A program made the translations under genes and the position numbers. Positions 48,201 to 63,630 of a stretch of 64,000 bases of DNA are shown here, piece by piece; positions within the stretch are counted from its first letter, which is position 1, and each line of letters starts with the position of its first letter. Below the pieces are notes generated by a model. That model was not told the DNA's origin, ran no database searches, and was given only the letters and a program-made list of their open reading frames with translations. Source of the stretch: Acutalibacteraceae bacterium (GTDB taxonomy: Bacteria > Bacillota > Clostridia > Oscillospirales > Acutalibacteraceae); assembly GCA_045639785.1 (NCBI GenBank), contig JAZUDT010000002.1:4121-68120 (forward strand), given 5' to 3'.

Positions 48201-48214
48201 AGGGGGTGTCATAA

Positions 48215-50401: not shown

Positions 50402-50527
50402 GAGTTAGAAATTAGGAGAGAGGAGTGAGGAGTTATCCGAGCAAGAATATATTTCCATAAAAAGTGATTGCGAAGAAATAAAAAAGATGCTGTCATCTTC
50501 CACAAAAACATTAAAGGACGAATTGAA

Positions 50528-51040
50528 ATGAAAACTTCTTACTTCTCCAACCTCACTCCTAACGCTCTGAAAGAGCAAATCTACCGTGATTTTTACGGCA
50601 AGGTCTACGGTTACATACTGTCGAAAATTCAGAATGTGCAGAATGCGGAGGACCTGACGTCGAATGTTTTTCTCAAGGTATATGAAAAGCTCGACACGTT
50701 TGACGACAGCAAGGCCTCTCTTTCCACATGGATTTACACCATAACAAGAAACACGCTGACGGATTTTTACCGCACGAGAAAGGTTTTTGACGAAATACCC
50801 GAAAACCAGGAGAGCGGCTTTTCTCTTGAAGATGAGGTATGCAATGCTCAGACGCTTGAAATGCTGGCACAGGCACTTGAAACGCTTGACGAGCGGGAAC
50901 GGGATATTGTTATTTTCCGCTACTACTCGGGCAAAACGCTCAGGGATATTTCGGAGCAGATGAATATTTCGTATGCATACGTTAAGGTGCTTCAGAATAA
51001 AGCGTTGGCAAAATTGAGAAAATTTTTGGAAAATCAGTAG
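50528..51040 (+). CDS. ECF-like sigma-70 family RNA polymerase sigma factor
   Basis: Region 2 is AEDLTSNVFLKVYEKLDTFDDSKASLSTWIYTITRNTLTDFYR and region 4 is ERERDIVIFRYYSGKTLRDISEQMNISYAYVKVLQNKALAKLR. The start MKTSYF at 50528 follows AAGGA. Confidence 0.85.
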   Translation: MKTSYFSNLTPNALKEQIYRDFYGKVYGYILSKIQNVQNAEDLTSNVFLKVYEKLDTFDDSKASLSTWIYTITRNTLTDFYRTRKVFDEIPENQESGFSLEDEVCNAQTLEMLAQALETLDERERDIVIFRYYSGKTLRDISEQMNISYAYVKVLQNKALAKLRKFLENQ

Positions 51041-51066
51041 CCGCTTTTTAAATTTCATCGTATAAA
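51028..51066 (+). promoter_or_regulatory. conserved promoter/5'UTR module, copy 1 (overlaps sigma gene stop)
   Basis: ggaaaatcagtagccgctttttaaatttcatcgtataaa. It shares GAAAAATCAGTAGCC-N-CTTTT-N-AAA-N3-CATCGTATAAA with copies 2 and 3. An RBS and ATG of peptide gene a follow about 30 nt downstream. Confidence 0.55.
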
Positions 51067-51095
51067 CAGATGAAAGGGGCAAGGAGGTAACAAAA

Positions 51096-51275
51096 ATGGA
51101 AAAGAAATTTGAACTTAATGATAAAGAGCTTGAAAAAGTCAGCGGCGGACCCGAAGAACGCACGGTGCTCGGCTTGAAGGCTTCATCGGATTGCAGAAAA
51201 TGCGAATGCGGGCAGATTATTGAAGATGACGGCCTTGCGTTCTGCCCGTTTTGCGGAAGCAAAATAAGCGATTGA
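51096..51275 (+). CDS. double-glycine-leader peptide a (zinc-ribbon-like core)
   Basis: Not in the ORF track because it is only 59 aa. The sequence is MEKKFELNDKELEKVSGG / PEERTVLGLKASSDCRKCECGQIIEDDGLAFCPFCGSKISD. The RBS AAGGAGG lies 8 nt upstream. Confidence 0.7.
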   Translation: MEKKFELNDKELEKVSGGPEERTVLGLKASSDCRKCECGQIIEDDGLAFCPFCGSKISD

Positions 51276-51283
51276 TAAAAACA

Positions 51284-51323
51284 GAAAAATCAGTAGCCAC
51301 TTTTTAAAAAGCATCGTATAAAT
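51284..51323 (+). promoter_or_regulatory. conserved promoter/5'UTR module, copy 2
   Basis: gaaaaatcagtagccactttttaaaaagcatcgtataaa, followed by AAGGAGG and ATG 51353. Confidence 0.55.
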
Positions 51324-51352
51324 ATATGCAACGAGGTAAGGAGGCAATAAAA

Positions 51353-51610
51353 ATGGAAAGAAAACTTAATGCAATTTTTGATTATCAGAATTTTGAAAAA
51401 AATCCCCGTCTTGAAAAGCTTATTTCGGAAACCGAGAACCGGTATGCGAGGGAGCTTTCAGATGACGATCTCACTTTTGTCAATGCGGCTGGCGATTTCA
51501 ACATGAGCGGCGGACTTATAAGCGAAAATGAAATTTCTGAAAAAAACAGCACTCCGACATCGTCCGCTGTATTTGGTAAATCAGTCAATGTCAATGAAGT
51601 GCTTACCTAA
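51353..51610 (+). CDS. small hydrophilic protein b (possible long-leader peptide or regulator)
   Basis: 85 aa: MERKLNAIFDYQNFEKNPRLEKLISETENRYARELSDDDLTFVNAAGDFNMSGG / LISENEISEKNSTPTSSAVFGKSVNVNEVLT. The RBS AAGGAGG lies 7 nt upstream. It has no TM segment. Confidence 0.55.
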   Translation: MERKLNAIFDYQNFEKNPRLEKLISETENRYARELSDDDLTFVNAAGDFNMSGGLISENEISEKNSTPTSSAVFGKSVNVNEVLT

Positions 51611-51660
51611 GCCTGAAAATTGAATGAATAATAATTAAACTGAAAGAGGTGGATTCTGAA

Positions 51661-51900
51661 ATGAAAACAAAAGAAGAACTGAATGAGCTCAAAAAAGAAT
51701 ACGAAAACGTAAAAAGCAAGCTTTCCGAGCTTAGTGAATACGAGCTTAAAGAGGTCACGGGCGGCTATCATTGCGGGATCAATGCGAACTCCGGCACAAT
51801 GATTCATGCACCGACCTTCGGAGCGGTTGCAGATACGGCTCCATACATTGATACAGGATTATCTTCAGATGTTAACAATAAAGAAATAAAGGTCGATTAA
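51661..51900 (+). CDS. double-glycine-leader peptide c
   Basis: 79 aa: MKTKEELNELKKEYENVKSKLSELSEYELKEVTGG / YHCGINANSGTMIHAPTFGAVADTAPYIDTGLSSDVNNKEIKVD. RBS AGAGGTGG. Confidence 0.75.
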   Translation: MKTKEELNELKKEYENVKSKLSELSEYELKEVTGGYHCGINANSGTMIHAPTFGAVADTAPYIDTGLSSDVNNKEIKVD

Positions 51901-51926
51901 ATTATATTATAGGAGGAGATTTAACC

Positions 51927-52097
51927 ATGAAAACTAAAGAAGAACTGAACGAACTCAAAAAAGAATACGAAAACGTAAAAAGCAAGCTTTCCGAGCTTAG
52001 CGAAGACGAGCTTAAAGAAGTCGTCGGCGGAGTCGGAGGCGATCCGATTGACATCGAAGTATATACCAACTGGGAAATTCTACCCACAATACAGTAA
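51927..52097 (+). CDS. double-glycine-leader peptide d
   Basis: Not in the ORF track (56 aa). The sequence is MKTKEELNELKKEYENVKSKLSELSEDELKEVVGG / VGGDPIDIEVYTNWEILPTIQ. RBS AGGAGGAG. The leader is 33/35 identical to peptide c. Confidence 0.75.
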   Translation: MKTKEELNELKKEYENVKSKLSELSEDELKEVVGGVGGDPIDIEVYTNWEILPTIQ

Positions 52098-52135
52098 CGG
52101 ATTTGACAGTAAAAACTAAAAAGGAGGAATTTCTC

Positions 52136-52318
52136 ATGGAAAACGAAAAGAATAAAAAATCAATATCCGATGAAGAGCTTGGAGATGTCACCGGCGGCGG
52201 TATCCTCGACAAGCTCACGACAGGAACGCAAGTTAATTCCTCTAAAGATGACCCCGACGGTTATCAGATAAGCGAAAGACTGCGTGTTCTGATTAGACCG
52301 GGTGATACTGCTGAATAG
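52136..52318 (+). CDS. double-glycine-leader peptide e
   Basis: 60 aa: MENEKNKKSISDEELGDVTGG / GILDKLTTGTQVNSSKDDPDGYQISERLRVLIRPGDTAE. The RBS AAGGAGGA lies 7 nt upstream. Confidence 0.75.
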   Translation: MENEKNKKSISDEELGDVTGGGILDKLTTGTQVNSSKDDPDGYQISERLRVLIRPGDTAE

Positions 52319-52380
52319 CTTGCTGATAAATACTCAGAAAAAATTTGGAATAAGAGTAATAAAAAATGCCAACGATATCC

Positions 52381-52420
52381 GGAAAAATCAGTAGCCCTTT
52401 TGAAAAAAGCATCGTATAAA
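52381..52420 (+). promoter_or_regulatory. conserved promoter/5'UTR module, copy 3
   Basis: ggaaaaatcagtagcccttttgaaaaaagcatcgtataaa, followed by AAGGAG and ATG 52452. Confidence 0.55.
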
Positions 52421-52451
52421 ATAATGAAAGAAAACAAAAGGAGCAATCATT

Positions 52452-52616
52452 ATGAAACTTGATGAAAACGAAAGCAAGAAGCAAGCAGAAATTAACGGAG
52501 ATGTACTTACGGAAGTCACGGGCGGTAAGGAAGATTTAACAATCAAGCCCAATGACGGAGAATTCTGGCATTCGTGGAATCCGGCATTTATCATTTCAGA
52601 CGAATCCATCAAATGA
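52452..52616 (+). CDS. double-glycine-leader peptide f
   Basis: Not in the ORF track (54 aa). The sequence is MKLDENESKKQAEINGDVLTEVTGG / KEDLTIKPNDGEFWHSWNPAFIISDESIK. RBS AAGGAG. Confidence 0.7.
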   Translation: MKLDENESKKQAEINGDVLTEVTGGKEDLTIKPNDGEFWHSWNPAFIISDESIK

Positions 52617-52684
52617 ATCAAGATAATATTTAACAAAAAATCAACCGATAACAGGTATGCAAAACACAGAAAGGAAAAATCAGA

Positions 52685-52879
52685 ATGGAAAACGAAAAGA
52701 ATATTAAAGCAATATCCGAAGAAGATCTTAAAAATGTCACCGGCGGCAAAGAAAATATCAATTCTGAGGAACTTTGGTTTGAGGGTACAGATGTTGACAG
52801 GATTGCCATGCTAAATTCCGGTCCCGCAAACGGAGTCACTCCGATAATTTTTACCGCCACAGTGAATGGGGATAAGTAA
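52685..52879 (+). CDS. double-glycine-leader peptide g
   Basis: 64 aa: MENEKNIKAISEEDLKNVTGG / KENINSEELWFEGTDVDRIAMLNSGPANGVTPIIFTATVNGDK. The leader is paralogous to peptide e. Confidence 0.7.
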   Translation: MENEKNIKAISEEDLKNVTGGKENINSEELWFEGTDVDRIAMLNSGPANGVTPIIFTATVNGDK

Positions 52880-52915
52880 ATTATCGTTTTGTTTTGAAAA
52901 GCAAGTAAAAATCAG

Positions 52916-52952
52916 AAAAACGCTTGAAACCTTTGCGTTTCAAGCGTTTTTT
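52916..52952. terminator. bidirectional terminator shared by the peptide operon and the recombinase gene
   Basis: aaaaacgcttgaaac / gtttcaagcgttttt form an 11-bp core stem extended by A/T tracts. The recombinase stop codon (52940-52942) lies in the right arm. Confidence 0.75.
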
Positions 52953-54427
52953 GATTTTGGTGCACCGAAATCGGTGAAATCCGAACCTTTTTCTGCCGCT
53001 TCAATTTCGGCAAAGGTTATTGTTTTTGAACCGTCTTTGAAATTAAAAGTGATTACCATTTTGTCATCGTCAAGATAAATTGCGTTGATAAATGTATCAA
53101 TCAGCTTGCGGCGATGTTCAAGTTTCTCTATGTTAAGCTTTCTCAATCTGTGGAACCAAAACAGTATCTGTTCTCTTGTAAGAACCGGTTTTGACATTTC
53201 TTCTTTCATTATCTGAACCGAAAGTTCGCCTTTTTGCTGTTCAAGTTCTTCAAGTCTTTGTTTGGTTGACGGTGTAATTATGCCTTGCTCTATTGCGTTC
53301 AGCATATTATTTATAGCTTTTTCAGTCTCTGAATACCGTTTTTGAAGTATCGGTAAAACCTTGTTTTCAGAACCTAATTTTTCTAAAGCCATATCGGCAA
53401 GGCGTTCAATCAGATCATCATCAAGAATGATTTTTTGTATCTGTTCAAGGACTAAATTCTCTATCCAATCCTTTTTTACGGTCTTTTTATTACATCCACG
53501 GTGTTCTTTTACGCTGACACATTTATAGTATCTGTGAACCTCACCTGTATGACTTGTACCGCTTTCGCCAACCATAAAGCATTTACATTTTGCACAGTAA
53601 AGTTTAGTTGTCAACAGATATTCATCTTCGGCTTTATGTTTAGCCGGAGCTTTTTTATTTAATGCCATTCGCTCCTGTACTCTGTCAAACATTTCTTGGG
53701 TTACAATAGCGGGAATACCTCCGGGGATAACAACATCCTTGTATTTATATTCGCCTATGTACTTACGGTTATGAAGCATACTTGTAACATTATCCGTATC
53801 AAGCTTGCCGTTATGCCGCTGTGTTCTGACACCTCTGATATTCAATTCATCGGCTATCTGCTGCATACCCATTCCGTTTGCATACATCTCAAAAGCGTCC
53901 GCAACGGCAGGCGAAGTTATGGGATCAAGCTGATAATGTTTATCGCTGTCAATTACATATCCGATAGGGAGCGTACCGCCGTTATACTTGCATTTAAGGG
54001 CATTTTCTTTCATTCCACGGTTTACTTTTTCGGCAAGTTCAACGGAATAATATTCTGCCATACCCTCAAGCATTGTTTCAAGAAGCACGCCTTCTGAGCC
54101 TTTTGAAATGGCTTCGGTTGCAGAAACAACCTTAACGCCGTTCTTTTTTAATGCCGCTTTATAGTGTGCAGAATCAAAACGATTACGAGCAAATCTGTCA
54201 AGCTTCCAAACTATAACAACATCGAAATTTTTTCTGCTGCTGTCTTTAATCATCCTTTGAAAATCAGGTCTTTTATCGGTTTTTGCAGAAAATGCACGGT
54301 CGATATATATATCAACTATATTGATGCAGTTCCGTTCGGCAAATTCCTTGCACTCACGAATCTGACCTTCAATAGATTCTTCACGCTGACTGTCCGAAGA
54401 ATATCTTGCATAAATTACACCGTTCAT
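52940..54427 (-). CDS. large serine recombinase (resolvase/invertase catalytic domain + recombinase + zinc-ribbon domains)
   Basis: MNGVIYARYSSDSQREESIEGQ carries the catalytic Ser motif. Also present are VIVWKLDRFARN and the Cys-rich CAKCKCFMVG...YYKCVSVKEHRGC zinc ribbon. The start at 54427 is the first Met before the conserved N-terminus. Confidence 0.9.
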   Translation of the reverse strand: MNGVIYARYSSDSQREESIEGQIRECKEFAERNCINIVDIYIDRAFSAKTDKRPDFQRMIKDSSRKNFDVVIVWKLDRFARNRFDSAHYKAALKKNGVKVVSATEAISKGSEGVLLETMLEGMAEYYSVELAEKVNRGMKENALKCKYNGGTLPIGYVIDSDKHYQLDPITSPAVADAFEMYANGMGMQQIADELNIRGVRTQRHNGKLDTDNVTSMLHNRKYIGEYKYKDVVIPGGIPAIVTQEMFDRVQERMALNKKAPAKHKAEDEYLLTTKLYCAKCKCFMVGESGTSHTGEVHRYYKCVSVKEHRGCNKKTVKKDWIENLVLEQIQKIILDDDLIERLADMALEKLGSENKVLPILQKRYSETEKAINNMLNAIEQGIITPSTKQRLEELEQQKGELSVQIMKEEMSKPVLTREQILFWFHRLRKLNIEKLEHRRKLIDTFINAIYLDDDKMVITFNFKDGSKTITFAEIEAAEKGSDFTDFGAPKSKNA

Positions 54428-54532
54428 TTTCTCACTGTCCTTTCTGCCGGGTTTCAGGGCTGTCCCTGACAAGTGCCGTGCATATGCAACGGCGATGCTT
54501 GATAAGACAATGTCCATTGGATTTCAAGCATC

Positions 54533-54795: not shown

Positions 54796-55005
54796 TTGGC
54801 TCGCTCATACAATAAACTTTGGAAACTGATGATTGATAAAAAGATGAATAAAACACAACTCCGTGAAGCCTCAAAAATCACTACTAATGCAATGGCTAAA
54901 CTTGCAAAAGATGAATCAGTACCCCTTGAAACTCTTGAAAAGATTTGTGCCGTTTTGCATTGCAATATTGAGGATATTGTAGAAGTTACTTATGAAGAAA
55001 ACTAA
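54796..55005 (+). CDS. XRE-family HTH regulator (possible R-M controller protein)
   Basis: 69 aa with a TTG start 7 nt after TAGGAGGG. The HTH is MNKTQLREASKITTNAMAKLAKDESVPLETLEKICAVLHCNIEDIVEV. It is the first gene of the co-directional cassette. Confidence 0.75.
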   Translation: MARSYNKLWKLMIDKKMNKTQLREASKITTNAMAKLAKDESVPLETLEKICAVLHCNIEDIVEVTYEEN

Positions 55006-55107
55006 AACTTATCTTCATTATATTGAAAGAAATGTCCGTTAATATGGACTTTATATTTGTTATAATAGTCGATAGATGTACTGCTGTCTTTAGAGAGGTT
55101 CATGTTT

Positions 55108-56121
55108 ATGCCTTATCAAATTTGGAACAGAAGATATACAGGAAGCAAATATAAAATTGCTGAATGGATACACGGTTTAATATCTGAAAATTGTATTGGA
55201 ACATCTTTTTGTGATATTTTTGCCGGTACTGCAATTATCAGTAAACATGCATTAGATAATTATGAAGAAGTATATATAAATGATTTTCTCTATTCAAACG
55301 AAATAATATATAAAGCGTTTTTTGAACAAAATTATTATGATATAGAGAAACTAAATAAATTATGCAAGCAATTCAATTCAGTAGATTGTTCAAATATTCC
55401 TGATAACTATATATCTCTTAATTTCGGAAACAAATATTTTTCCTACTCAGATGCTCTTTTAATCGGTTATATTCGTGATCGAATCGAAAAAGAAGAACTA
55501 ACCGAAAAAGAAAAAAATATTCTGCTTGCTTCATTACTTTATTCGGCAGATAAATCTGCAAATACAGTCGGTCACTATGATGCCTATATTAAAGGAAAAG
55601 CAATCCCCGATACTTTTAAATTTGATTTAATTGTACCTTATAAATACAAAAACAAAAAGATACATATAACACGTAAAGATGCCAATGAATTAGCAAAGGA
55701 AATTCAAACAGATATTGTATATATCGATCCACCATACAATTCAAGACAATACAGTAGATTTTATCATGTGCTCGAAAACATAGCTTGTTGGAATAAGCCC
55801 GATTTGTTTGGCGAGGCTTGTAAGCCTATTCCCGAAAACATGAGTGAGTATTGTCGAAATGCAGCAACAGCAGTGTTTGAAGATCTTATAAATTCACTCA
55901 AATGCAAGTATATTGTTGTTTCGTATAATAACACATACAATTCAAAAAGCAGTTCATCTAAAAATAAAATAACATTAGAAGATATTGAAAGAATACTTGC
56001 AAAAAGAGGGAAAGTTTCAATTTATGAAAAACCGTTTCAATACTTTAATGCAGGAAAAACAGATTTGAAAGATCATAAGGAACTAATATTTATAGTGGAA
56101 GTTGGTAAAGAAAATGATTGA
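55108..56121 (+). CDS. D12-class N6-adenine DNA methyltransferase (M1)
   Basis: RRYTGSKYKIAEWI N-terminus, motif I-like FCDIFAGTAIIS, catalytic DPPYNSRQY. An alternative ATG is at 55102. Confidence 0.8.
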   Translation: MPYQIWNRRYTGSKYKIAEWIHGLISENCIGTSFCDIFAGTAIISKHALDNYEEVYINDFLYSNEIIYKAFFEQNYYDIEKLNKLCKQFNSVDCSNIPDNYISLNFGNKYFSYSDALLIGYIRDRIEKEELTEKEKNILLASLLYSADKSANTVGHYDAYIKGKAIPDTFKFDLIVPYKYKNKKIHITRKDANELAKEIQTDIVYIDPPYNSRQYSRFYHVLENIACWNKPDLFGEACKPIPENMSEYCRNAATAVFEDLINSLKCKYIVVSYNNTYNSKSSSSKNKITLEDIERILAKRGKVSIYEKPFQYFNAGKTDLKDHKELIFIVEVGKEND

Positions 56122-57022
56122 AAGAAGTGAATGCAGACGTTCTCCATTCTTTTATGTTGGAGATAAATTCAAGCTCGTTCCTCAACTAAAAGAAAATTTT
56201 CCGAAAGATATTGACCGCTTTATTGAACCCTTTTGTGGTGGCGGAAGCGTTTTTTTGAATACTGAAGCAAACCAATATTTGCTGAACGATATTGATTCAT
56301 ATATGATCAAGCTGCATCAGTTTTTAATCTCTGCAAGCGAGAACACAGAGCAGTTTTGGAGTGAACTGAAGTTTGATATAGATAAGTATAGGCTTTCTGC
56401 AACATTTCTCGGAAAAGATGTTCCCTCGGAATACAGAAAAGAATTTGTGAAGACATATTTTGCCAAATACAATAAAGAATCATATATGAAAATGAGAGCA
56501 GATTTCAACGATGGTAAAGATGATATGATGCTTCTTTATATGCTTTTAATCTATGGCTTCAACAGAATGTTAAGATTTAATCGTAAAGGAGACTTTAATC
56601 TTCCGGTAGGAAATGTTGACTTCAATCAGAATGTTGTTGATGCACTGAATTCATATTTTGATTATGTGAATGATAGAGATATTGAATTGTTCAATATGGA
56701 TTTTCAGGACTTCATCGAGAAAGTTCAGCCGACTCCCAATGATATGGTTTATTTAGATCCGCCGTATTTAATTACTTTCAGCGAATATAACAAATTGTGG
56801 AATGAAGATAGTGAAATGCGACTAATTGACTATTTGGATGAGCTTGATGCTCGTGGTGTTCGATTTGCCGTTTCGAATGTTTTATGGCACAGAAAGAGAT
56901 ATAACGGCACATTTAATGCATGGGCACAAAAATATAATATTGTGCGCATACAGAGCAATTACATAAGCTATCATGACAACTCAGAAAAAGACTCATACGA
57001 AGTATTGGTGAAAAACTATTAA
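56114..57022 (+). CDS. D12-class (Dam-like) N6-adenine DNA methyltransferase (M2)
   Basis: FFYVGDKFKLVPQL, EPFCGGGSVFLN (motif I) and DPPYLITFSEYN (motif IV). The ATG at 56114 overlaps the M1 stop (ATGATTGA). Confidence 0.85.
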   Translation: MIERSECRRSPFFYVGDKFKLVPQLKENFPKDIDRFIEPFCGGGSVFLNTEANQYLLNDIDSYMIKLHQFLISASENTEQFWSELKFDIDKYRLSATFLGKDVPSEYRKEFVKTYFAKYNKESYMKMRADFNDGKDDMMLLYMLLIYGFNRMLRFNRKGDFNLPVGNVDFNQNVVDALNSYFDYVNDRDIELFNMDFQDFIEKVQPTPNDMVYLDPPYLITFSEYNKLWNEDSEMRLIDYLDELDARGVRFAVSNVLWHRKRYNGTFNAWAQKYNIVRIQSNYISYHDNSEKDSYEVLVKNY

Positions 57023-57035
57023 GGATGTGAGATTT

Positions 57036-58610
57036 ATGCCAAGAGAAAGAGCTGCTGAATATAAGCCATTATCATTTTCAACAACAATGAGAAATCCTGC
57101 AAGAATAGCAGGGTTCCTGAACTGCATTATTCCTTTTGAAGGACAGCTATTAACCAATGATATTATTATGAACGTTGCAAAAACGCTTATAAAGAAAAAA
57201 TTATATATCCCGATGTATGTAACTCGGATTCCTAATTTGAAAGCGGTATTAAATGATGAAAGAGAATTTACTGATTCGGAAGTAATCGAAATAATTGACC
57301 ATAGCCCGCAAAATCATAAAGAAGCAGGATTTGAAAAAGGTTGGCCTTCAAGATTTGACACTTGGTATAAATTGGCTATGGAATTTGGTTTTGTATTTTA
57401 TCAAATAGATTCTCCGATTGTTATTTCAACAACGGGGCATATGTTAGTTGATGCATTTAATGAAAATCCTATTAATGATGAGAAAATAAAAAATGTTTTC
57501 CTTAATGCATTAATGAAATATCAAACCAACAATCCGTTTAGAAAAAATGCCAACGCCAATTCACCTTTGGTTCTTTTATTAAAAGTGATAAAACTATTAA
57601 AAAATGATCCCGAAGAGAATGATGCAGGTGTTTTCAGAAATGAGCTGTCTTTATTGATTTGTTGGAGAGATAATGATGCGGATGCTCTGTATCATAAAAT
57701 TAAAGAACTGCGTCAACTTCATCAATTTACATACGGTGATGAGGTTATTTATGAAATCTGTCTTGATCTTCTTGGAGCTGCCGAAGAACAAAAGAACAGG
57801 TTTAAAATCAATCAAATTACCGGCGAGGCGGTTGATGAATTCATCAGAAAAATGCGTATAACAGGTATTGTTTCTTTAAGAGGAAATGGCCGTTTTATAG
57901 ATTTTAACTCCTTTGAATCCGATAAAATACAGTATATTTTAGATAACTATTCGGATTATGAAACATACGATGATAAAAACGCTTATTTCCAATATATGGG
58001 TACTATTGACACAGACATTGTATCAATGGTTCAGCCTATAAATGAGGAAGCGGTTAATGATGCCCGAATTTCAACACTAAATCAATGGGCAAATGAATAC
58101 TCAAAAGAAGATATAATAAACGAATTGAATATTGTTTGCAGAAACAGAGAAAGTAGAAATCCTGTTTTAAGAATTATTGATAAACCTACTCGTTTGGAAT
58201 TTTTAACGAGTATAGCATTAAAACAGCATTTTGACACTTTAGTTGTAAAACCCAATTATCATGTTGACGATGAAGGTTTGCCAACTTTTACCGCATCAGG
58301 TGGTATGGCGGACATTGAGTGCTTTGATACAGATTGCAATCCGCTTGTAGAAGTTACTCTTATGTGTGCGAGGAATCAGGCAACAAATGAAATGCCCGCT
58401 ATTACCCGACATTTGCAGGAAGCAATCGAAAAATATCCGACAGTAACGGTATTCTCTATCCTTGTGGCACCGTCTATTCATGCAGATACAAAATATATGG
58501 CTGAGTTCTCTAAATTCAGATATAATGTTGATGTTTTGACTTTTACAAACGAAGAATTTATTGAACAAATAAGTTGTAAAGATAGGATTATTGAAATGTT
58601 AAATTACTGA
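57036..58610 (+). CDS. type II restriction endonuclease, AlwI-family-like (probably type IIS)
   Basis: 525 aa immediately after two methyltransferases. The N-terminal LSFSTTMRNPARIAGFL resembles what I recall of the RE_AlwI family N-terminus. A C-terminal PD-(D/E)xK-like block is present (ADIECFD...VEVTLM). Confidence 0.55.
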   Translation: MPRERAAEYKPLSFSTTMRNPARIAGFLNCIIPFEGQLLTNDIIMNVAKTLIKKKLYIPMYVTRIPNLKAVLNDEREFTDSEVIEIIDHSPQNHKEAGFEKGWPSRFDTWYKLAMEFGFVFYQIDSPIVISTTGHMLVDAFNENPINDEKIKNVFLNALMKYQTNNPFRKNANANSPLVLLLKVIKLLKNDPEENDAGVFRNELSLLICWRDNDADALYHKIKELRQLHQFTYGDEVIYEICLDLLGAAEEQKNRFKINQITGEAVDEFIRKMRITGIVSLRGNGRFIDFNSFESDKIQYILDNYSDYETYDDKNAYFQYMGTIDTDIVSMVQPINEEAVNDARISTLNQWANEYSKEDIINELNIVCRNRESRNPVLRIIDKPTRLEFLTSIALKQHFDTLVVKPNYHVDDEGLPTFTASGGMADIECFDTDCNPLVEVTLMCARNQATNEMPAITRHLQEAIEKYPTVTVFSILVAPSIHADTKYMAEFSKFRYNVDVLTFTNEEFIEQISCKDRIIEMLNY

Positions 58611-58690
58611 TTAACTGTATGTAAAATATGGCCTAATCTGAATGAATTGTCCTTTATCGAATCCACAATAAAACCGATGGAGTGATGAAA

Positions 58691-60043
58691 ATGAATAATA
58701 ATTTGTACGGAAAATTAGAATACAATAATGAAAAATACCCTTTCTATTTAGAGGATAGAATAGTTCGTATTATTGGAGAACCTTTTCAATACAATAACGA
58801 TTTCAAAAATGCGGATGAGATTGAAATAATAAGGGGTATCACCTCTGGGAATAAAGATATTATATTTTTGCGTTGCAAATTCATAAAAAAGAGTTTTAAA
58901 TTTATCGAATTTTCTATTGAAGGTTACGCAATTTCCAAAAGTGATATGGGAGTCCCTTGCGATTTTACATATACCAGTAGTTCGTTTGAATCGGATGCAA
59001 TAGACACGTTTTTTTCACCGCAAAAAGCCGTCAACTTCGATGAGGGCATAAATGATGAAACAGGAGAAATTTCAATTAAAATATCTCCGTTTAAAGCTAC
59101 TTCTATTGGGTTTGATTATTTAGATTCAAAATGTCAGTTTAGTATTTCTCGTTATGTACGAATTCATAGAGATCCCACAAGTATCGGACAAGTAAAATCA
59201 GTATTTACATTTGAACATTCACAAGTTCAATCCATAACAAAAGTAATTGATGATTATTGTGCTATATATGATTTTTTGTCATTTGTAAACTATAGTACAA
59301 ATATTCCATTCAAAAAAATAATTATCGGTAAAAAGAATGATGATGGATGTTTTGAAAATACTGCCATAGTGCACTTTTTTATTGATAAATCAGAGTATGA
59401 AAATACGGATTTTAATACGATTACCATAGATGATATACCTCAAGAAAAGCTTTGTGATATTTTTTCATGCATTGCATCGCTTAGAAATAAAGATAAACGG
59501 TTGCGATTTTACTTTCCTGAAAACAATCAAGAAAGGCGATATATTGATCCGGGTAAATGGCTTATTGCAGCATTAAATTTCGAAGGATTGTTTACAGAAA
59601 CATATCCTGGTTTTAAATGCAATATGACACCTTCATTTAATAATGCAAAACAGCTTGCTTTAGAGAGAATAGACAATACATCAGACGGTAAATCCTTATC
59701 AAAAAATGAGCAAAAGCATTATCAAAATTGTCGAAGGCAAATTGAACGTTACGAAGGACAATTAGAAGAAAAATTCAATTATGTCCTCAAGAATAACAAA
59801 GATGTTGTAGCACAAATTTTACAATATAATGAAAAACATCTTAGTACAAAGTTATCAGAGAATTATGGAAAAATATTTGCCGATTACCGTAATAAAATTG
59901 CACACGGCTCTGTCGAACCAATAGCAGATAAACAAGTGGCAGCATATCGTCTTTTGCGTCCATTCATTTATCTTTTGATTTTATCGAAAATAGATTTAAC
60001 ACCTAATGAAAAGAAAAAAGTCATTGCAAAATTATTTGAGTAA
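58691..60043 (+). CDS. ApeA-like abortive-infection candidate with C-terminal HEPN domain
   Basis: The C-terminal FADYRNKIAHGS contains the HEPN R-x4-H motif. The N-terminal YGKLEYNNEKYPFYLEDRIVRIIG resembles ApeA N-terminal domains. The start at 58691 lies 8 nt after GGAG. Confidence 0.5.
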   Translation: MNNNLYGKLEYNNEKYPFYLEDRIVRIIGEPFQYNNDFKNADEIEIIRGITSGNKDIIFLRCKFIKKSFKFIEFSIEGYAISKSDMGVPCDFTYTSSSFESDAIDTFFSPQKAVNFDEGINDETGEISIKISPFKATSIGFDYLDSKCQFSISRYVRIHRDPTSIGQVKSVFTFEHSQVQSITKVIDDYCAIYDFLSFVNYSTNIPFKKIIIGKKNDDGCFENTAIVHFFIDKSEYENTDFNTITIDDIPQEKLCDIFSCIASLRNKDKRLRFYFPENNQERRYIDPGKWLIAALNFEGLFTETYPGFKCNMTPSFNNAKQLALERIDNTSDGKSLSKNEQKHYQNCRRQIERYEGQLEEKFNYVLKNNKDVVAQILQYNEKHLSTKLSENYGKIFADYRNKIAHGSVEPIADKQVAAYRLLRPFIYLLILSKIDLTPNEKKKVIAKLFE

Positions 60044-60156: not shown

Positions 60157-61248
60157 ATGAGCAAGCCTAAGAAAATACAAATCCCTGGCAAAAACTATTT
60201 TGCTTGGAAATACGAAGAACAAACAAAGGTAAAGCATAAAGTTTTAGGTTCTTATGCTAAGATTTGGATATCAAAACTTGGTTATAAATGCAATACTCTA
60301 TTTTTTGATTGCCACGGCGGATGTGGCGCGTATATTGATGAGGAAGCCTCGGTTTCATATGGCTCATCAATATTAGTAAAGCAATTAGCCGATAAAATCA
60401 GCGAAAAGCGTTCGACAAAGACAGGAGTATATTACTGCGAAAAAGATAAAGGTACTTATGATAACTTTATTAACATAAAAAATGAATTGAACAACATAAA
60501 AATCAATACATATAACGATTCGTTTGAAAATATAATTGCAAAACCTGATGTTTCAAAGTACTACAATAAATATCCAACCCTTTTTCTTGTTGATCCTTTT
60601 GGTTACAATTTTGATATTAACGAATTATCTGTAATGATGAAGGGTTTCGGAAATGAAGTAATAGTAAATTTCATGTTTGATTTTATAACTCGTTTCATTT
60701 CAAAAAATGAGCTTAAAGATTCTTTAAATCGTTTCTTCGGATCTAACGAATGGGAAAATGCTATTAATTTAACAGGAAGAGAACGAGAAACATTCTTAGT
60801 AAATATTTTCAAAAACAAAATCAAAGAGGTAACAGGTGCAAAATTTGTTTTTCCATATCGGTTATGCTATCCCGATAAGGATCAAACATATTATTATTTG
60901 ATACACGCAACTAATCATATTGACGGAATTACTTTGATGAAAGATGCATTTGCAAGCATTAATAATGGCAGGGTACAGTATTTAGGTAGGCATAATAACG
61001 ATATTTCTATCTTTGATATGGACTGTATTAAAGCGGATGATATATACAACTCGTATATGAAAAATAGAAAAGGCGAAAGTTTTTCAGTTGATGATTTTTG
61101 GGTTGGCATTGTTGAAGAAACCGCCTATACAAGAAAAGATTTAAGCAGTATATTAAATGAATTAGTAAACACTGGGAAAATAGTGATTGATAGAATTTCA
61201 TCAAAACGTGGTTCATATCGGGAAAAAGATATAATCACGATTATATAG
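60157..61248 (+). CDS. three-Cys-motif partner protein TcmP-like
   Basis: WKYEEQTKVKHKVLGSYAKIW...LFFDCHGGCGAYIDE...YGSSILV matches my recollection of the TcmP family N-terminal signature (W..HT..K...L..Y; D.FAG.G.Y; GS). It is adjacent to a three-Cys protein. Confidence 0.6.
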   Translation: MSKPKKIQIPGKNYFAWKYEEQTKVKHKVLGSYAKIWISKLGYKCNTLFFDCHGGCGAYIDEEASVSYGSSILVKQLADKISEKRSTKTGVYYCEKDKGTYDNFINIKNELNNIKINTYNDSFENIIAKPDVSKYYNKYPTLFLVDPFGYNFDINELSVMMKGFGNEVIVNFMFDFITRFISKNELKDSLNRFFGSNEWENAINLTGRERETFLVNIFKNKIKEVTGAKFVFPYRLCYPDKDQTYYYLIHATNHIDGITLMKDAFASINNGRVQYLGRHNNDISIFDMDCIKADDIYNSYMKNRKGESFSVDDFWVGIVEETAYTRKDLSSILNELVNTGKIVIDRISSKRGSYREKDIITII

Positions 61249-61258
61249 AGGGCGTAAT

Positions 61259-62017
61259 ATGAAAACAATCAACAGGCAATCTATGCTTTATAAAACCGGT
61301 GTAGAGTATGGAGATTATACGTTAAACCATGTGCAAGGTTGTGCACACGGTTGCAAATATCCTTGCTATGCTATGCAGATGGCAAAACGTTTTGGAAAAG
61401 TCAAAACATACGAAGAATGGTGTGAACCGAAACTTGCCGAAAACACATTAGAAATACTTGATAAAGAACTCCCGAAACTTAAAAATAAGATTGAATCGGT
61501 GCATCTTTGTTTTACTACTGATCCGTTTATGTATGGATATGATGAAGTTAAAAAAATGAGTATCGAGATTCTAAAAAAGATTAATTCGTATGATATAAAA
61601 TGCACGGTTCTGACAAAAGGCATATTACCTTTTGAGCTTGCCAGCTTAACAAAAGAAAACGAATATGGGATTACTTTGGTATCTTTGGATGAAGATTTTC
61701 ACATAAAATATGAGCCAAATACAGCTCCTATGAATGATAGAATTGAAGCTTTAAAAGCTCTGCATAATGCAGGGTGCAAAACATGGGTAAGCATAGAACC
61801 ATATCCCACACCGAATATTATTGAGCAAGATCTTAAAGCAATTTTAGACTCTATCAGTTTTGTTGATAAAATCATTTTCGGACGGATGCACTATAATAAG
61901 TTAATCAGTGAATACAAAGAGCATAAATCTTTTTTCAACAAATGTGCCGATTCAGTTATTAAGTATTGTACTGAAAATGGAATCGCATATCACATAAAAA
62001 ATGGTACAATGACTTGA
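61259..62017 (+). CDS. radical-SAM-like three-Cys-motif (C-x3-C-x3-C) protein, related to COG1533/SPL-like DNA-acting enzymes
   Basis: YTLNHVQGCAHGCKYPCYAM lies near the N-terminus. At 252 aa it is compatible with a partial TIM barrel. The gap after the TcmP-like gene is 10 nt. Confidence 0.6.
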   Translation: MKTINRQSMLYKTGVEYGDYTLNHVQGCAHGCKYPCYAMQMAKRFGKVKTYEEWCEPKLAENTLEILDKELPKLKNKIESVHLCFTTDPFMYGYDEVKKMSIEILKKINSYDIKCTVLTKGILPFELASLTKENEYGITLVSLDEDFHIKYEPNTAPMNDRIEALKALHNAGCKTWVSIEPYPTPNIIEQDLKAILDSISFVDKIIFGRMHYNKLISEYKEHKSFFNKCADSVIKYCTENGIAYHIKNGTMT

Positions 62018-62178: not shown

Positions 62179-62574
62179 ATGAAAAGTTCAATATTAAAAG
62201 AGCGAGCTGCTTTTGCTTTAAATATGATTTTGTCAGCAGACAAAGTTGATTATCGTTCTTTAGAGCGTTCCCGTTTGTGCTTTTACATACAGGATTATCA
62301 TAACGATATTGAAAAAGAAGTTGCACTTGCTCTTGTTTCAGAATGGGAAGAAATCAAAAATTATGATAAGTTATCTTTTTTCAAAAGGCTTCTTGTCCGT
62401 TTACGATTTACTTGGAAAAACACAAAAGCGGAATTGGTCTTATCCGATGAAATAGTCGAGTCAATAGTTGATTTAATGCTGCCGGATATTATCTCATTCT
62501 TTGAATCAGAAGAAGGTAAGAAAGAGTTTGAGGAGTGGAAAGCGGAGAGGAAAAAGCATTCTGAGAAAATGTAA
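62179..62574 (+). CDS. hypothetical protein
   Basis: 131-aa ORF with RBS AAAGGAG. Its C-terminal EGKKEFEEWKAERKK tail recurs as a remnant at 63636-63698. Confidence 0.5.
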   Translation: MKSSILKERAAFALNMILSADKVDYRSLERSRLCFYIQDYHNDIEKEVALALVSEWEEIKNYDKLSFFKRLLVRLRFTWKNTKAELVLSDEIVESIVDLMLPDIISFFESEEGKKEFEEWKAERKKHSEKM

Positions 62575-62595
62575 AAAATGATTTAAGGAGGAACT

Positions 62596-63051
62596 ATGGG
62601 ATTATTAAATTTGGCAAGTAGTGCCTCTGCTTGGCGAGGGTATGATTATTATAAAAAAGGGGCGGTAATAACAAAACTCAAAATATCGGATACTGAGTAT
62701 TCGGGATGTGTTAATGGGAATAGCCATGCATCTTATGATGTGTTTATTGATTTAGAGCATCCGAGAAAGTCACATTGCAACTGTCCGTATGCAAACGGAA
62801 AAAGAATCATTTGCAAGCATCAAATTGCCTTGTTCTTTTCGGCATTCCCGGATGAAGCCGAAAAGTATTACAAAGAAGTGTTGGAATATGAAGAACAAGC
62901 AGAGAGGGAAGCGGAAGAACTATACGACAAAGTTGCGGATTACATATTTAAGATGAAAAAATCAGAAGCACAGCAGGTTCTATATGAGATCTTGTTTGAT
63001 GGTCCGGAATGGCAATTTGACAGGTTTGTCAGCGAACATTGGATCGAATGA
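62596..63051 (+). CDS. SWIM zinc-finger protein
   Basis: HCNCPYANGKRIICKHQIALFF fits the SWIM C-x-C-xn-C-x-H signature. RBS AAGGAGG. Confidence 0.7.
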   Translation: MGLLNLASSASAWRGYDYYKKGAVITKLKISDTEYSGCVNGNSHASYDVFIDLEHPRKSHCNCPYANGKRIICKHQIALFFSAFPDEAEKYYKEVLEYEEQAEREAEELYDKVADYIFKMKKSEAQQVLYEILFDGPEWQFDRFVSEHWIE

Positions 63052-63153
63052 TTTGTATGATTGAATTATTTTGCTGCGTTGAAGTTTGTAATTGAAAAGG
63101 AATATTAATATTTTTTGGATGCTCAGACGAAATATTAAAAGGAATAGATAAAA

Positions 63154-63630
63154 ATGGAAAATAAATATAGTATTTTAAAAAATATAATTGAACAGGCAAT
63201 AGAATCATTTAACGAAAAAGAAGAATATCTTATAAAAAACGATCTCAGCGAACGATGTATATGTTCAAGATTTGCTACATATATTACCACAGCATTGCAA
63301 GTTACTGAATTCCATGATTATGTTGCTGATGTGGAATATAATCGTGGAGCTATGGGTAAGGAAAATGGAATAAAGAAAATGGATAATAACCCAATTACGG
63401 TTGATCTAATTGTTCATAAAAGAGGATATGATATTTGGAGCGGATTCATAAATCTGATATGTATTGAAATGAAAAAATCTACAGATAGACGTGGTTGTGC
63501 TGATGATGAAGAACGATTGCGAAAAATGTGTAGTTATGAATATAAATTTTCCTATTCAGCAGGTTTTATGATTTTAATAAATAAAAAAGAAAATCGATTA
63601 GAAATAAAGAGAGAGTTTTGTTTGAGTTAA
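63154..63630 (+). CDS. hypothetical protein, possible PD-(D/E)xK nuclease fold
   Basis: VDLIVHKRG...NLICIEMKK gives a D ... E-x-K arrangement with about 20-aa spacing. Support is weak and motif-level only. Confidence 0.3.
   Translation: MENKYSILKNIIEQAIESFNEKEEYLIKNDLSERCICSRFATYITTALQVTEFHDYVADVEYNRGAMGKENGIKKMDNNPITVDLIVHKRGYDIWSGFINLICIEMKKSTDRRGCADDEERLRKMCSYEYKFSYSAGFMILINKKENRLEIKREFCLS

Follow-up and report, generated by a model that had tools for sequence, protein, structure and literature searches.

A TcmP protein and a three-cysteine radical-SAM-type partner as a candidate defense or DNA-modification pair on a mobile bacterial island

The gene pair considered here lies toward the 3' end of a 64,000-nucleotide stretch of an Acutalibacteraceae genome (contig JAZUDT010000002.1 of assembly GCA_045639785.1), referred to below as the window. 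The first gene, tcmP, occupies 60157..61248 on the + strand and encodes 363 amino acids (aa); the second, at 61259..62017 on the same strand, encodes a 252-aa enzyme of the radical S-adenosylmethionine (SAM) superfamily. The two open reading frames (ORFs) are separated by a 10-nucleotide spacer (61249..61258, +) that holds the ribosome-binding site of the partner gene, GAGGG, and the Shine-Dalgarno sequence 5' of tcmP is AAGGAG. Judged from these signals, the arrangement is consistent with translational coupling or co-transcription of the two genes. Promoter and terminator scans of the sequence were uninformative on transcription units (47 observed vs 48.3 in shuffled sequence and 6 vs 4.5, respectively). 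A preliminary description, made from the letters alone, had reported two co-directional genes of these lengths and this spacing, and had read them with caution as a TcmP protein and a three-Cys radical-SAM-like enzyme forming a candidate defense or DNA-modification pair. The positions are exact, and the hedged reading is supported by the results set out below.

Membership of the first protein in the three-Cys-motif partner family, which the preliminary description had named, is borne out by the TIGR04474 model, matched at 124.1 bits (cutoff 53, E 9.1e-36) over profile positions 1-260 of 263. The sequence blocks quoted at the time, W17-KYEEQTKVKHKVLGSY33, F49-FDCHGGCGAY59 and G69-SS, are all present. 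The PADLOC model PDC-M30A also matches the protein over its full length, at 2.4e-20. Family members form 4,887 clusters at 50% identity (E <=1e-3) and are spread sparsely over most bacterial and archaeal phyla.

Structure prediction with AlphaFold2 (AF2), based on 48 homologues, gave a TcmP model with a predicted local distance difference test score (pLDDT) of 92.5 and a predicted template modeling score of 0.91, in which a Rossmann-type domain is followed by a winged helix. On the combined evidence of the model, Foldseek and motifs, the first part (~aa 17-275) is predicted to be an RlmJ-like class-I SAM methyltransferase domain. When the model was compared with the PDB by Foldseek, chains of Escherichia coli RlmJ took ranks 1-6 and 8-12 (best E 8e-7), Aquifex Trm1 took rank 7, and the DUF519 protein LPL1258 was also among the matches; the TM-scores against RlmJ are only 0.41-0.54. 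RlmJ is the E. coli 23S rRNA methyltransferase that forms N6-methyladenine (m6A) at position 2030, and it belongs to the DUF519 family. A fold search of BFVD on the TcmP side returned generic class-I methyltransferases only. The second part, encoded at 61021..61242 (+; ~aa 289-362), is a GMT-like winged helix-turn-helix (wHTH) domain with the secondary structure H-E-H-H-E-E in the model, and it presumably binds nucleic acid. The corresponding Pfam family, PF22560, scores 22 bits on the window protein, under its cutoff of 27, and reaches 1.4e-11 on homologues; in a Pfam scan the domain was found at the C-terminus of 48/48 family members.

Four motifs could be aligned between RlmJ and TcmP: motif X (LKHTVQ in RlmJ, VKHKVL in TcmP), motif I (YLDTHAGAGRY and FFDCHGGCGAY), the G-S motif (YYPGSP and SYGSS), and motif IV (LILIDPPYE and LFLVDPFGY). 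Motif I, F49-FDCHGGCGAY59, is the predicted SAM-binding loop and is encoded at 60301..60333 (+), and motif IV, L142-FLVDPFGY150, is the predicted catalytic loop, encoded at 60580..60606 (+) and equivalent to 164-DPPY-167 of RlmJ. Conservation was read from an alignment of 125 diverse family representatives. In motif I it amounts to 99% for D51, 99% for G55, 96% for G57, and 91% for Y59, and in motif IV to 100% for D146, 98% for P147 (the counterpart of RlmJ P165), 93% for F/Y148, and 95% for G149. Two residues of RlmJ, K18 and D164, are catalytic, and the K18A and D164A variants are inactive (PMC3814359); their TcmP equivalents are K26, conserved in 98%, and the invariant D146. In RlmJ, SAM is bound by H19, H42, S100, and E118 (PMC3814359), which correspond in TcmP to H27 (92%), position 53 (aromatic in 98%), S70 (98%), and E/D95 (100%). 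A role of C52 and C56 of motif I in cluster ligation was considered and rejected, as neither Cys is conserved family-wide.

The RlmJ-like fold, taken together with the conserved equivalents of the catalytic and SAM-binding residues of RlmJ, indicates that TcmP is, with high probability, an amino-methyltransferase that binds SAM and flips out its target base, with D-P-[FY]-G as its catalytic loop and a tail that binds nucleic acid. The two proteins share the K-H of motif X, the D-x-H-x-G-x-G-x-Y of motif I, the G-S motif, and the D-P of motif IV. However, motif IV of RlmJ reads D-P-P-Y, in contrast to the D-P-[FY]-G of TcmP, and TcmP adds the wHTH domain and the radical-SAM partner. The Pfam scan of 48 TcmP proteins at E <=1 matched no methyltransferase family, and a sequence search of the TcmP family profile against all PDB chains gave nothing meaningful; with both family profiles, the PDB sequence searches returned only Vpr and hemolysin E, at E >0.1. 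TcmP is therefore a distant relative of the RlmJ-like amino-methyltransferases and not a sequence-profile member of them. The TIGR04474 family, of which the window protein is a clear member that adjoins a three-Cys protein as the family name requires, has been named by genome context only; here, in contrast, an RlmJ-like core with a wHTH domain is recognized in it.

The partner protein carries the putative cluster-binding motif C28-AHG-C32-KYP-C36 followed by Y37 (61340..61366, +), in the sequence G27-C28-A-H-G-C32-K-Y-P-C36-Y37. This C-x3-C-x3-C motif, which the preliminary description had placed near the N-terminus, is kept in 120/120 close homologues, and the pattern C[AS]HGCx[YF]PCY is kept in 46/47 partners across Bacteria and Archaea. 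On these alignments, it is a fixed feature of the clade and not a local oddity. The canonical spacing C-x3-C-x2-C is departed from by a Pro inserted after the usual aromatic residue (CAHGCKYPC). Non-canonical Cys spacings occur in genuine radical SAM members, such as ThiC and HmdB, and consequently the spacing does not exclude the protein from the superfamily. Its membership is indicated by Pfam Radical_SAM (PF04055), matched at 47.7 bits (cutoff 29.5) over residues 23-198. The barrel part of the AF2 model (pLDDT ~75-95) likewise matches radical SAM enzymes at a Foldseek probability of 1.0, and the top matches are all genuine members: SuiB, HydE, PFL-AE, SkfB, LipA, BlsE, viperin, and NifB. 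The radical-SAM-like character proposed in the preliminary description is thus upheld.

Among 39 diverse partner sequences, the only invariant Cys residues are C28, C32, C36, and C237. An auxiliary Fe-S cluster was considered and rejected, since there is only one extra invariant Cys. Spore photoproduct lyase (SPL) uses a catalytic Cys outside its cluster motif, and the lone non-cluster Cys of the partner recalls it; by this analogy, C237 is a candidate catalytic residue. Kinship with COG1533/SPL-like enzymes, as suggested in the preliminary description, did not hold as family membership. The COG1533/SPL-like families and radical SAM mobile pair A/B (TIGR04471/TIGR04470) are the best NCBIfam partial matches, but their Cys spacing is C-x3-C-x2-C and the scores fall far under the cutoffs: 15 bits against 400 for SPL, 52.8 against 360 for PA0069, 44.2 against 430 for Rv2578c, 47.9 against 410 for radical SAM mobile pair B (rSAM_mob_pairB), and 18.8 against 355 for the other pair model. 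By these scores, the partner belongs to none of SPL, PA0069, Rv2578c, and radical SAM mobile pair A/B. The score on DUF5131 (PF07505, the phage Gp37-Gp68 family), 29.6 bits, is barely over the cutoff of 28.9, the DUF5131 motif GC-x6-C-x2-CYA differs, and the DUF5131-type models of PADLOC touch only residues 12-92. The clade is best described, as far as sequence comparison goes, as related to DUF5131 and COG1533 yet distinct from both, and as a sister clade of DUF5131. No PADLOC or NCBIfam model covers it. DUF5131 itself is placed beside SPL in megacluster 5 by RadicalSAM.org (PMC9477430).

A scan of GTDB species representatives yielded 47 TcmP loci, distributed among Clostridia, Fusobacteria, Cloacimonadota, Nitrospirota, Spirochaetota, Melainabacteria, Actinomycetota, the Candidate Phyla Radiation, and at least eight archaeal lineages. 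In most of them, a radical-SAM gene of the window type lies directly 3' of tcmP or is fused to it; outside the window, the genes may share 4 bp, stand end to end, or form one ORF. Single-chain fusions of 487-670 aa, with TcmP N-terminal and the radical-SAM enzyme C-terminal, occur in six archaeal loci, all on contigs of archaeal metagenome-assembled genomes (L035, 645 aa; L040, 638 aa; L045, L047, L055, and L056). Such natural fusions would lend themselves to structural studies of the complex. A canonical DUF5131 protein (GC-x6-C-x2-CYA) replaces the window-type enzyme as the partner of TcmP in six other loci, and likewise in Gordonia phages and on a Pseudomonas aeruginosa plasmid; in this combination, the genes are sometimes convergent. 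By their motifs, the three-Cys partners of TcmP fall into at least two clades, the C-x3-C-x3-C type and the DUF5131 type with C-x6-C-x2-C.

The two proteins diverge at different rates. In 33/33 loci, the identity of the radical-SAM enzyme to its window counterpart is above that of TcmP, with means of 63% vs 41%. In locus L065, the enzyme is 64% identical, and its TcmP is too divergent for tblastn, yet it scores 107.6 bits on TIGR04474. Slow evolution of the partner and fast evolution of TcmP are what would be expected, on sequence grounds, if a conserved catalytic subunit worked with a recognition subunit that diversifies rapidly. TcmP and the radical-SAM enzyme are read from their gene arrangement as an obligate pair that acts as one functional unit.

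Some loci depart from the simple two-gene arrangement. In L015 (8843-11101), two tandem TcmP paralogues stand upstream of a single radical-SAM gene. On the P. aeruginosa plasmid NZ_CP124633 (L062, 6947-10485), which resembles an integrative and conjugative element (ICE), two TcmP paralogues flank a truncated-looking DUF5131 ORF of 179 aa, and these genes adjoin a DEAD/DEAH helicase and a DUF6094 protein. In the Cloacimonadota locus L029 (3482-4576), a gene for a 360-aa domain overlaps the radical-SAM gene by 4 bp, and in another Cloacimonadota locus, L030 (11104-12936), the same domain is fused to the radical-SAM enzyme or read through into it. This domain contains TPDW and, 13 residues on, IEVV; it is possibly PD-(D/E)xK-like and has no PDB sequence match. 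In L031, a downstream protein with an Mrr-like D..VQVK motif is found instead.

The surroundings of the pair were surveyed with Pfam over three genes upstream and three downstream in the 47 loci. Restriction-modification (R-M) domains predominate among the 95 upstream proteins, with matches to Eco57I (10), ResIII (9), N6_N4_Mtase (6), MmeI_Mtase (6), N6_Mtase (5), SNF2 (3), PLD (3), BrxL (1), and EcoRI methylase (1), and the downstream genes are mostly housekeeping. R-M or bacteriophage exclusion (BREX) genes lie within three genes upstream in 18/47 loci and on either side in 20/47 (~43%), and several of the loci without an R-M neighbor are truncated. The preliminary description had argued for defense or DNA modification by association, and had proposed enrichment near defense genes as a check; both are sustained by these counts and by the position of a related pair in a prophage immunity region. 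With operonic R-M/BREX embedding in ~43% of the loci, counted as independent, guilt by association is stronger than adjacency in a single window would make it.

The companion systems are of several classes. In Type III systems, the pair stands between mod and res, with ORFs that overlap or abut (L032, L036), before res (L052), after mod-res or res alone (L015, L016, L046, and the abundant P0029 element), or before mod-res (L065). It is preceded by a Type IIG enzyme in L005 and L010 (PADLOC REase_MTase_IIG, 1,349 bits), by PglZ-BrxL of BREX in L019, and by an EcoRI-type methyltransferase with GmrSD/HNH in L004. In six loci from four phyla, it is accompanied by an HKD-SNF2 protein and a IIG-like methyltransferase; one of these, L048, has the DUF5131-type partner. 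In other loci (e.g., L008, L020, and L038), no R-M neighbor is present. Homologues of the HTH_26 regulator that heads the gene block in the window also head the blocks of L010 (57% identity) and L026 (46%), with a similar one in L065, and the R-M cargo differs. Serine recombinases, relaxases, and integrases flank many of the blocks, with serine recombinases at L010 and at the P0029 element. In the Gordonia phage Easley, TcmP and DUF5131 come directly after the immunity repressor and before the integrase. This position in actinobacteriophages is typically that of prophage-expressed defense genes. A scan of 2.9 million viral contigs of IMG/VR contained no window-type TcmP.

Several observations on these neighborhoods stand apart. 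The HKD(PLD)-SNF2 duo consists of a helicase of ~1,100 aa and an Eco57I/IIG-like methyltransferase of ~1,050-1,280 aa with TaqI_C; it was found in L001, L026, L030, L033, L047, and L048, that is, in Clostridia, Cloacimonadota, an archaeon, and Vampirovibrio, and it possibly constitutes an independent, conserved multi-gene system. An SLFN/AlbA_2-HATPase protein is additionally present in L001 and L040. The P0029 lineage (L066-L072, from human gut metagenomes) is an integrative mobilizable element with genes for Type III Mod and Res, a gene of 379 aa at the TcmP position with no Pfam match on record, the radical-SAM gene, genes of 299 aa and 144 aa, and also a relaxase, ParB, and a serine recombinase. 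The chromosomal genes beside which it is inserted differ from sample to sample, and the collection indexes its radical-SAM cluster in 114 blocks. A gene of 170-220 aa upstream of tcmP was considered as a conserved third gene and rejected: clustering among such genes is confined to L042, L048, and L049, and the one upstream of tcmP in L005 is a fragment of a IIG enzyme.

The pairing of TcmP with canonical DUF5131 is already catalogued as the candidate PDC-M30/M41 in PADLOC-DB v2, and the defense idea for TcmP and three-Cys proteins is therefore not new. PDC entries are unvalidated candidates obtained by guilt by embedding, and in the preprint that introduced this approach, tests were confined to Hma-embedded candidates and TcmP is not discussed. 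PDC-M30 has been predicted in 32/100 P. aeruginosa strains, of which 68.8% fell in the phage-resistant group, a weak correlation (PMC10855318). The Sinorhizobium meliloti TcmP (SMa2243) has been listed and is co-regulated with the adjacent defense gene hna. As with the window pair, the A component of PDC-M30/M41 is TcmP and the candidates are embedded inside known defense operons. However, the B models describe canonical DUF5131 proteins, on which they score ~1e-74 to ~1e-116 (the partners in L048, phage Easley, and the P. aeruginosa plasmid were scored), in contrast to 6e-6 over 80 of 241 profile positions, all N-terminal, for the window partner and no match for that of L065. PADLOC would consequently not call the window pair. 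The TcmP-radical-SAM pair is thus not categorically new, as the family has a name and the sister arrangement is a listed defense candidate. The separate clade of its radical-SAM partner, the RlmJ-like methyltransferase character of TcmP, the fusions in archaea, and the placement inside Type III, IIG, and BREX operons make the pair a well-defined, attractive target for experiments; the last three, together with the slower divergence of the radical-SAM enzyme, are new findings here. From the letters alone, the preliminary description could not reveal the PADLOC listing, the methyltransferase likeness, the fusions, and the difference of the partner from the DUF5131 type of PDC-M30.

Some role in defense is considered fairly probable for the pair. 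The fuller explanation that is favored, tentatively and with rather less confidence, is a two-enzyme SAM-dependent module that acts on nucleic acid, probably on DNA adenine, is carried as a mobile immune cassette, and follows a logic like that of Type III systems. In this proposal, the unit would use SAM twice, once in TcmP and once in the radical-SAM enzyme. TcmP, a divergent RlmJ-type N6-adenine-type amino-methyltransferase joined to a winged helix, would bind nucleic acid, flip out a base, and methylate it or at least hold it in a SAM-loaded pocket. It would serve as the specificity subunit, and because it evolves fast, it probably sets the specificity. The 252-aa enzyme would be the slowly evolving catalytic subunit, performing radical chemistry on the substrate presented by TcmP. 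The unit as a whole would be a horizontally mobile cassette, co-transcribed with amino-methyltransferase systems (Type III, IIG, IIS, HKD-SNF2/methyltransferase, and BREX). As an anti-phage or anti-plasmid module acting on DNA, it would use TcmP in the manner of Mod, for recognition and self-marking, and the radical-SAM enzyme as the effector. We infer that the substrate is DNA rather than RNA, that methyl transfer and SAM cleavage take place, and that the pair has an immune phenotype. Type III R-M serves as an analogy only: it likewise combines a variable amino-methyltransferase subunit with a more conserved catalytic partner, and the pair is nested in its operons. Type III systems differ in having a helicase and a nuclease, which the pair lacks; a radical-SAM enzyme is the pair's putative effector, and its discrimination between self and non-self is entirely hypothetical.

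A number of results weigh against this explanation. The pair contains no recognizable nuclease or toxin, and the effector step is consequently a matter of conjecture. RlmJ and Trm1, structurally nearest to TcmP, have RNA as their target, which makes RNA a possible substrate. Alignment of the TcmP profile with the single E. coli RlmJ sequence by hhalign gave a probability of 3.7%, and the case for homology is therefore carried by structure and motifs; one hhalign-aligned segment was used only alongside the structural match and motif conservation. For the partner, the partial TIM barrel with a cluster site anticipated in the preliminary description was recovered in its barrel half. The cluster half was not: the model is moderate overall (pLDDT 68.9), residues 1-61 with the Cys loop lie below a pLDDT of 50, and the Fe-S/SAM site is thus assigned from sequence. 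The non-canonical Cys spacing counts in the same direction. About half of the loci have no R-M neighbor, the loci are not phylogenetically independent, and whole-island co-transfer may explain some of the associations. Co-directional embedding also fits mere hitch-hiking or an accessory role for the adjacent R-M system. Finally, no experimental study was found in the literature on any TcmP pair, TcmP, or DUF5131 protein, in agreement with the statement in the preliminary description that no function is established for the family, and nothing relevant was found on the origin of GMT-wHTH/PF22560 or on any defense system combining radical-SAM and methyltransferase enzymes.

A bolder form of the module, considered unlikely, is a self-contained restriction-modification system based on radical chemistry, in which TcmP reads DNA and marks self adenine at N6, and the radical-SAM enzyme damages or covalently alters unmethylated invader DNA. 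Here the wHTH domain and the variable surfaces of TcmP would read the sequence, and the fused or tightly bound radical-SAM enzyme would replace the nuclease, with a 5'-deoxyadenosyl radical attacking DNA and C237 serving as a hydrogen-atom relay. If true, it would be the first immune effector to attack nucleic acid by radical chemistry, and the company of classical R-M systems would be explained as that of an orthogonal second barrier.

A similarly low probability is given to pure DNA hypermodification with no restriction arm. According to this explanation, TcmP would methylate adenine at N6 and the radical-SAM enzyme would elaborate the same base; the complex mark so formed would shield the DNA of the mobile element or of the host against other restriction systems, or act epigenetically. 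Both enzymes look catalytically intact from their sequences, the lack of a nuclease would be expected, and the pair rides on integrative mobilizable elements, ICE-like plasmids, and prophages. An analogy is provided by the radical-SAM enzymes MiaB and MtaB, which act on adenines already substituted at N6 and modify them further. However, every neighboring R-M system has its own methyltransferase, and the Gordonia pair lies in a lysogenically expressed immunity region, where defense and not anti-restriction genes are usual. For a rapidly evolving TcmP with a slow partner, diversifying target recognition is also a better fit than a protective mark that stays fixed.

An accessory or guard function for the adjacent R-M or BREX system, instead of an autonomous one, is judged less probable still. 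The pair could be a back-up triggered when a SAM lyase or Ocr-type mimics disable the restriction complex, in the way of PrrC, or it could directly help systems that place m6A on one strand. The insertion between mod and res with overlapping ORFs is suggestive of such a role, as is the recurrence of the same HKD-SNF2 and IIG-like methyltransferase duo across Clostridia, Cloacimonadota, Archaea, and Vampirovibrio; the companions are nearly all SAM-dependent amino-methyltransferase systems, and TcmP and the radical-SAM enzyme are both predicted SAM binders. The PrrC anticodon nuclease is embedded in the EcoprrI type Ic hsd operon and offers a precedent for a second-line immune gene between R-M genes, but the proteins are unrelated, and the pair gives no sign of latency or of sensing R-M inhibition. 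Moreover, the pair is also found with no R-M system nearby (L008, L020, L038, and others) and alone in the prophage immunity module. Its companions span at least five classes, which argues against a specific protein-protein partnership, and activation by SAM depletion is awkward for radical SAM chemistry, which needs SAM.

RNA modification is common among radical SAM enzymes, and the best structural matches of TcmP are an rRNA m6A methyltransferase and a tRNA m2,2G methyltransferase. An RNA-directed pair, in which TcmP recognizes a nucleotide of tRNA or rRNA for alteration by the radical-SAM enzyme, is nevertheless considered improbable. Its outcome would be a translation shutdown by abortive infection, or ordinary RNA modification encoded on mobile DNA. 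DNA is favored both by the winged helix at the C-terminus and by the consistency of the R-M context. The pair is distributed sparsely, patchily, and on mobile DNA among the phyla, which speaks against an RNA modification of the housekeeping kind, and the active site of RlmJ resembles those of DNA m6A methyltransferases (PMC3814359).

The weakest candidate, a viperin-like pathway in which the radical-SAM enzyme makes a chain terminator or toxin from a nucleotide and TcmP methylates or regulates the product, is very improbable, since viperins are among the structural matches of the partner but far from the best of them (ranks 14, 36, and 48), TcmP has the catalytic loop of polynucleotide methyltransferases and a wHTH domain, and there is no nucleotide kinase or transporter partner. 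Prokaryotic viperins are, to our knowledge, the only validated radical-SAM defense, and in that sense a precedent.

With the SAM-dependent two-enzyme module as the favored explanation, a name based on context only is turned into a testable biochemical proposal, namely that an m6A-type methyltransferase and a radical-SAM enzyme work together in a single complex. As an immune system, the pair would bring radical chemistry on polynucleotides into the prokaryotic repertoire; as a modification system, it would probably make an undescribed DNA base. Few genes on these mobile islands are as well conserved as that of the radical-SAM partner.

In the window, tcmP and its partner gene form the 3' end of the R-M/HEPN-like part of a co-directional block, which runs on to the window end. 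The block is headed by a Cro/C1-type regulator with an HTH_26 domain (54796..55005, +; 69.8 bits). Two Dam-family N6-adenine methyltransferases follow (55102-56121 and 56102-57022, both +), matched by MethyltransfD12 at 110.9 and 132.4 bits, and then an AlwI-family endonuclease (57027-58610, +), matched by RE_AlwI at 135.4 bits and by PADLOC REase_II at 613 bits. On these domain matches, 55102..58610 is a Type IIS-like R-M system, in keeping with the type II system noted in the preliminary description. The methyltransferase genes overlap by 20 nt (56102-56121), and the second starts with TTG inside the end of the first. This overlap fits a translationally coupled, strand-specific pair for an asymmetric AlwI-type site.

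Between the R-M genes and tcmP lies a gene for a 453-aa protein with a possible C-terminal HEPN domain (58682..60043, +). The gene that the preliminary description called HEPN Abi-like is indeed present and has the Rx4H motif YRNKIAHG, but its HEPN assignment is sub-threshold, at 16.7 bits on HEPN_MAE_28990 against a cutoff of 26.8 and 0.0046 on the PADLOC model. The protein was considered as a recurrent third component and rejected, as it has no homologue in any other TcmP locus; its likeness to a neighbor in L051 (E 0.35) is limited to the Rx4H motif.

The AT-rich, recombinase-borne island of the preliminary description was found again. Its left edge is formed by a large serine recombinase on the - strand (52940-54517) with Resolvase, Recombinase, and Zn_ribbon_recom domains, and the GC fraction is 0.29-0.34 over 55-62 kb vs 0.45-0.49 upstream. 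Three further ORFs lie 3' of the pair (62179-63630). The first encodes 131 aa with no matches, the second a SWIM zinc-finger protein (62596-63051) with a partial match to PADLOC PDC-S62 (5e-11), and the third a PD-Lambda-3_A-like protein of 158 aa (63154-63630; 8e-11). Further defense-type cargo may follow past the window end.

On the other side of the recombinase, six small ORFs on the + strand (51096-52880) have double-glycine leader-like sequences (KVSGG, EVTGG, EVVGG, DVTGG, EVTGG, and NVTGG). They are preceded by two ORFs of ~725 aa (46029-48200 and 48215-50401), the second with ABC-transporter signatures, and by a sigma-70-like ORF (50468-51040). Judged from these sequence features, the region 46029-52880 is probably a locus for a bacteriocin or a ribosomally synthesized and post-translationally modified peptide (RiPP) that abuts the recombinase island.

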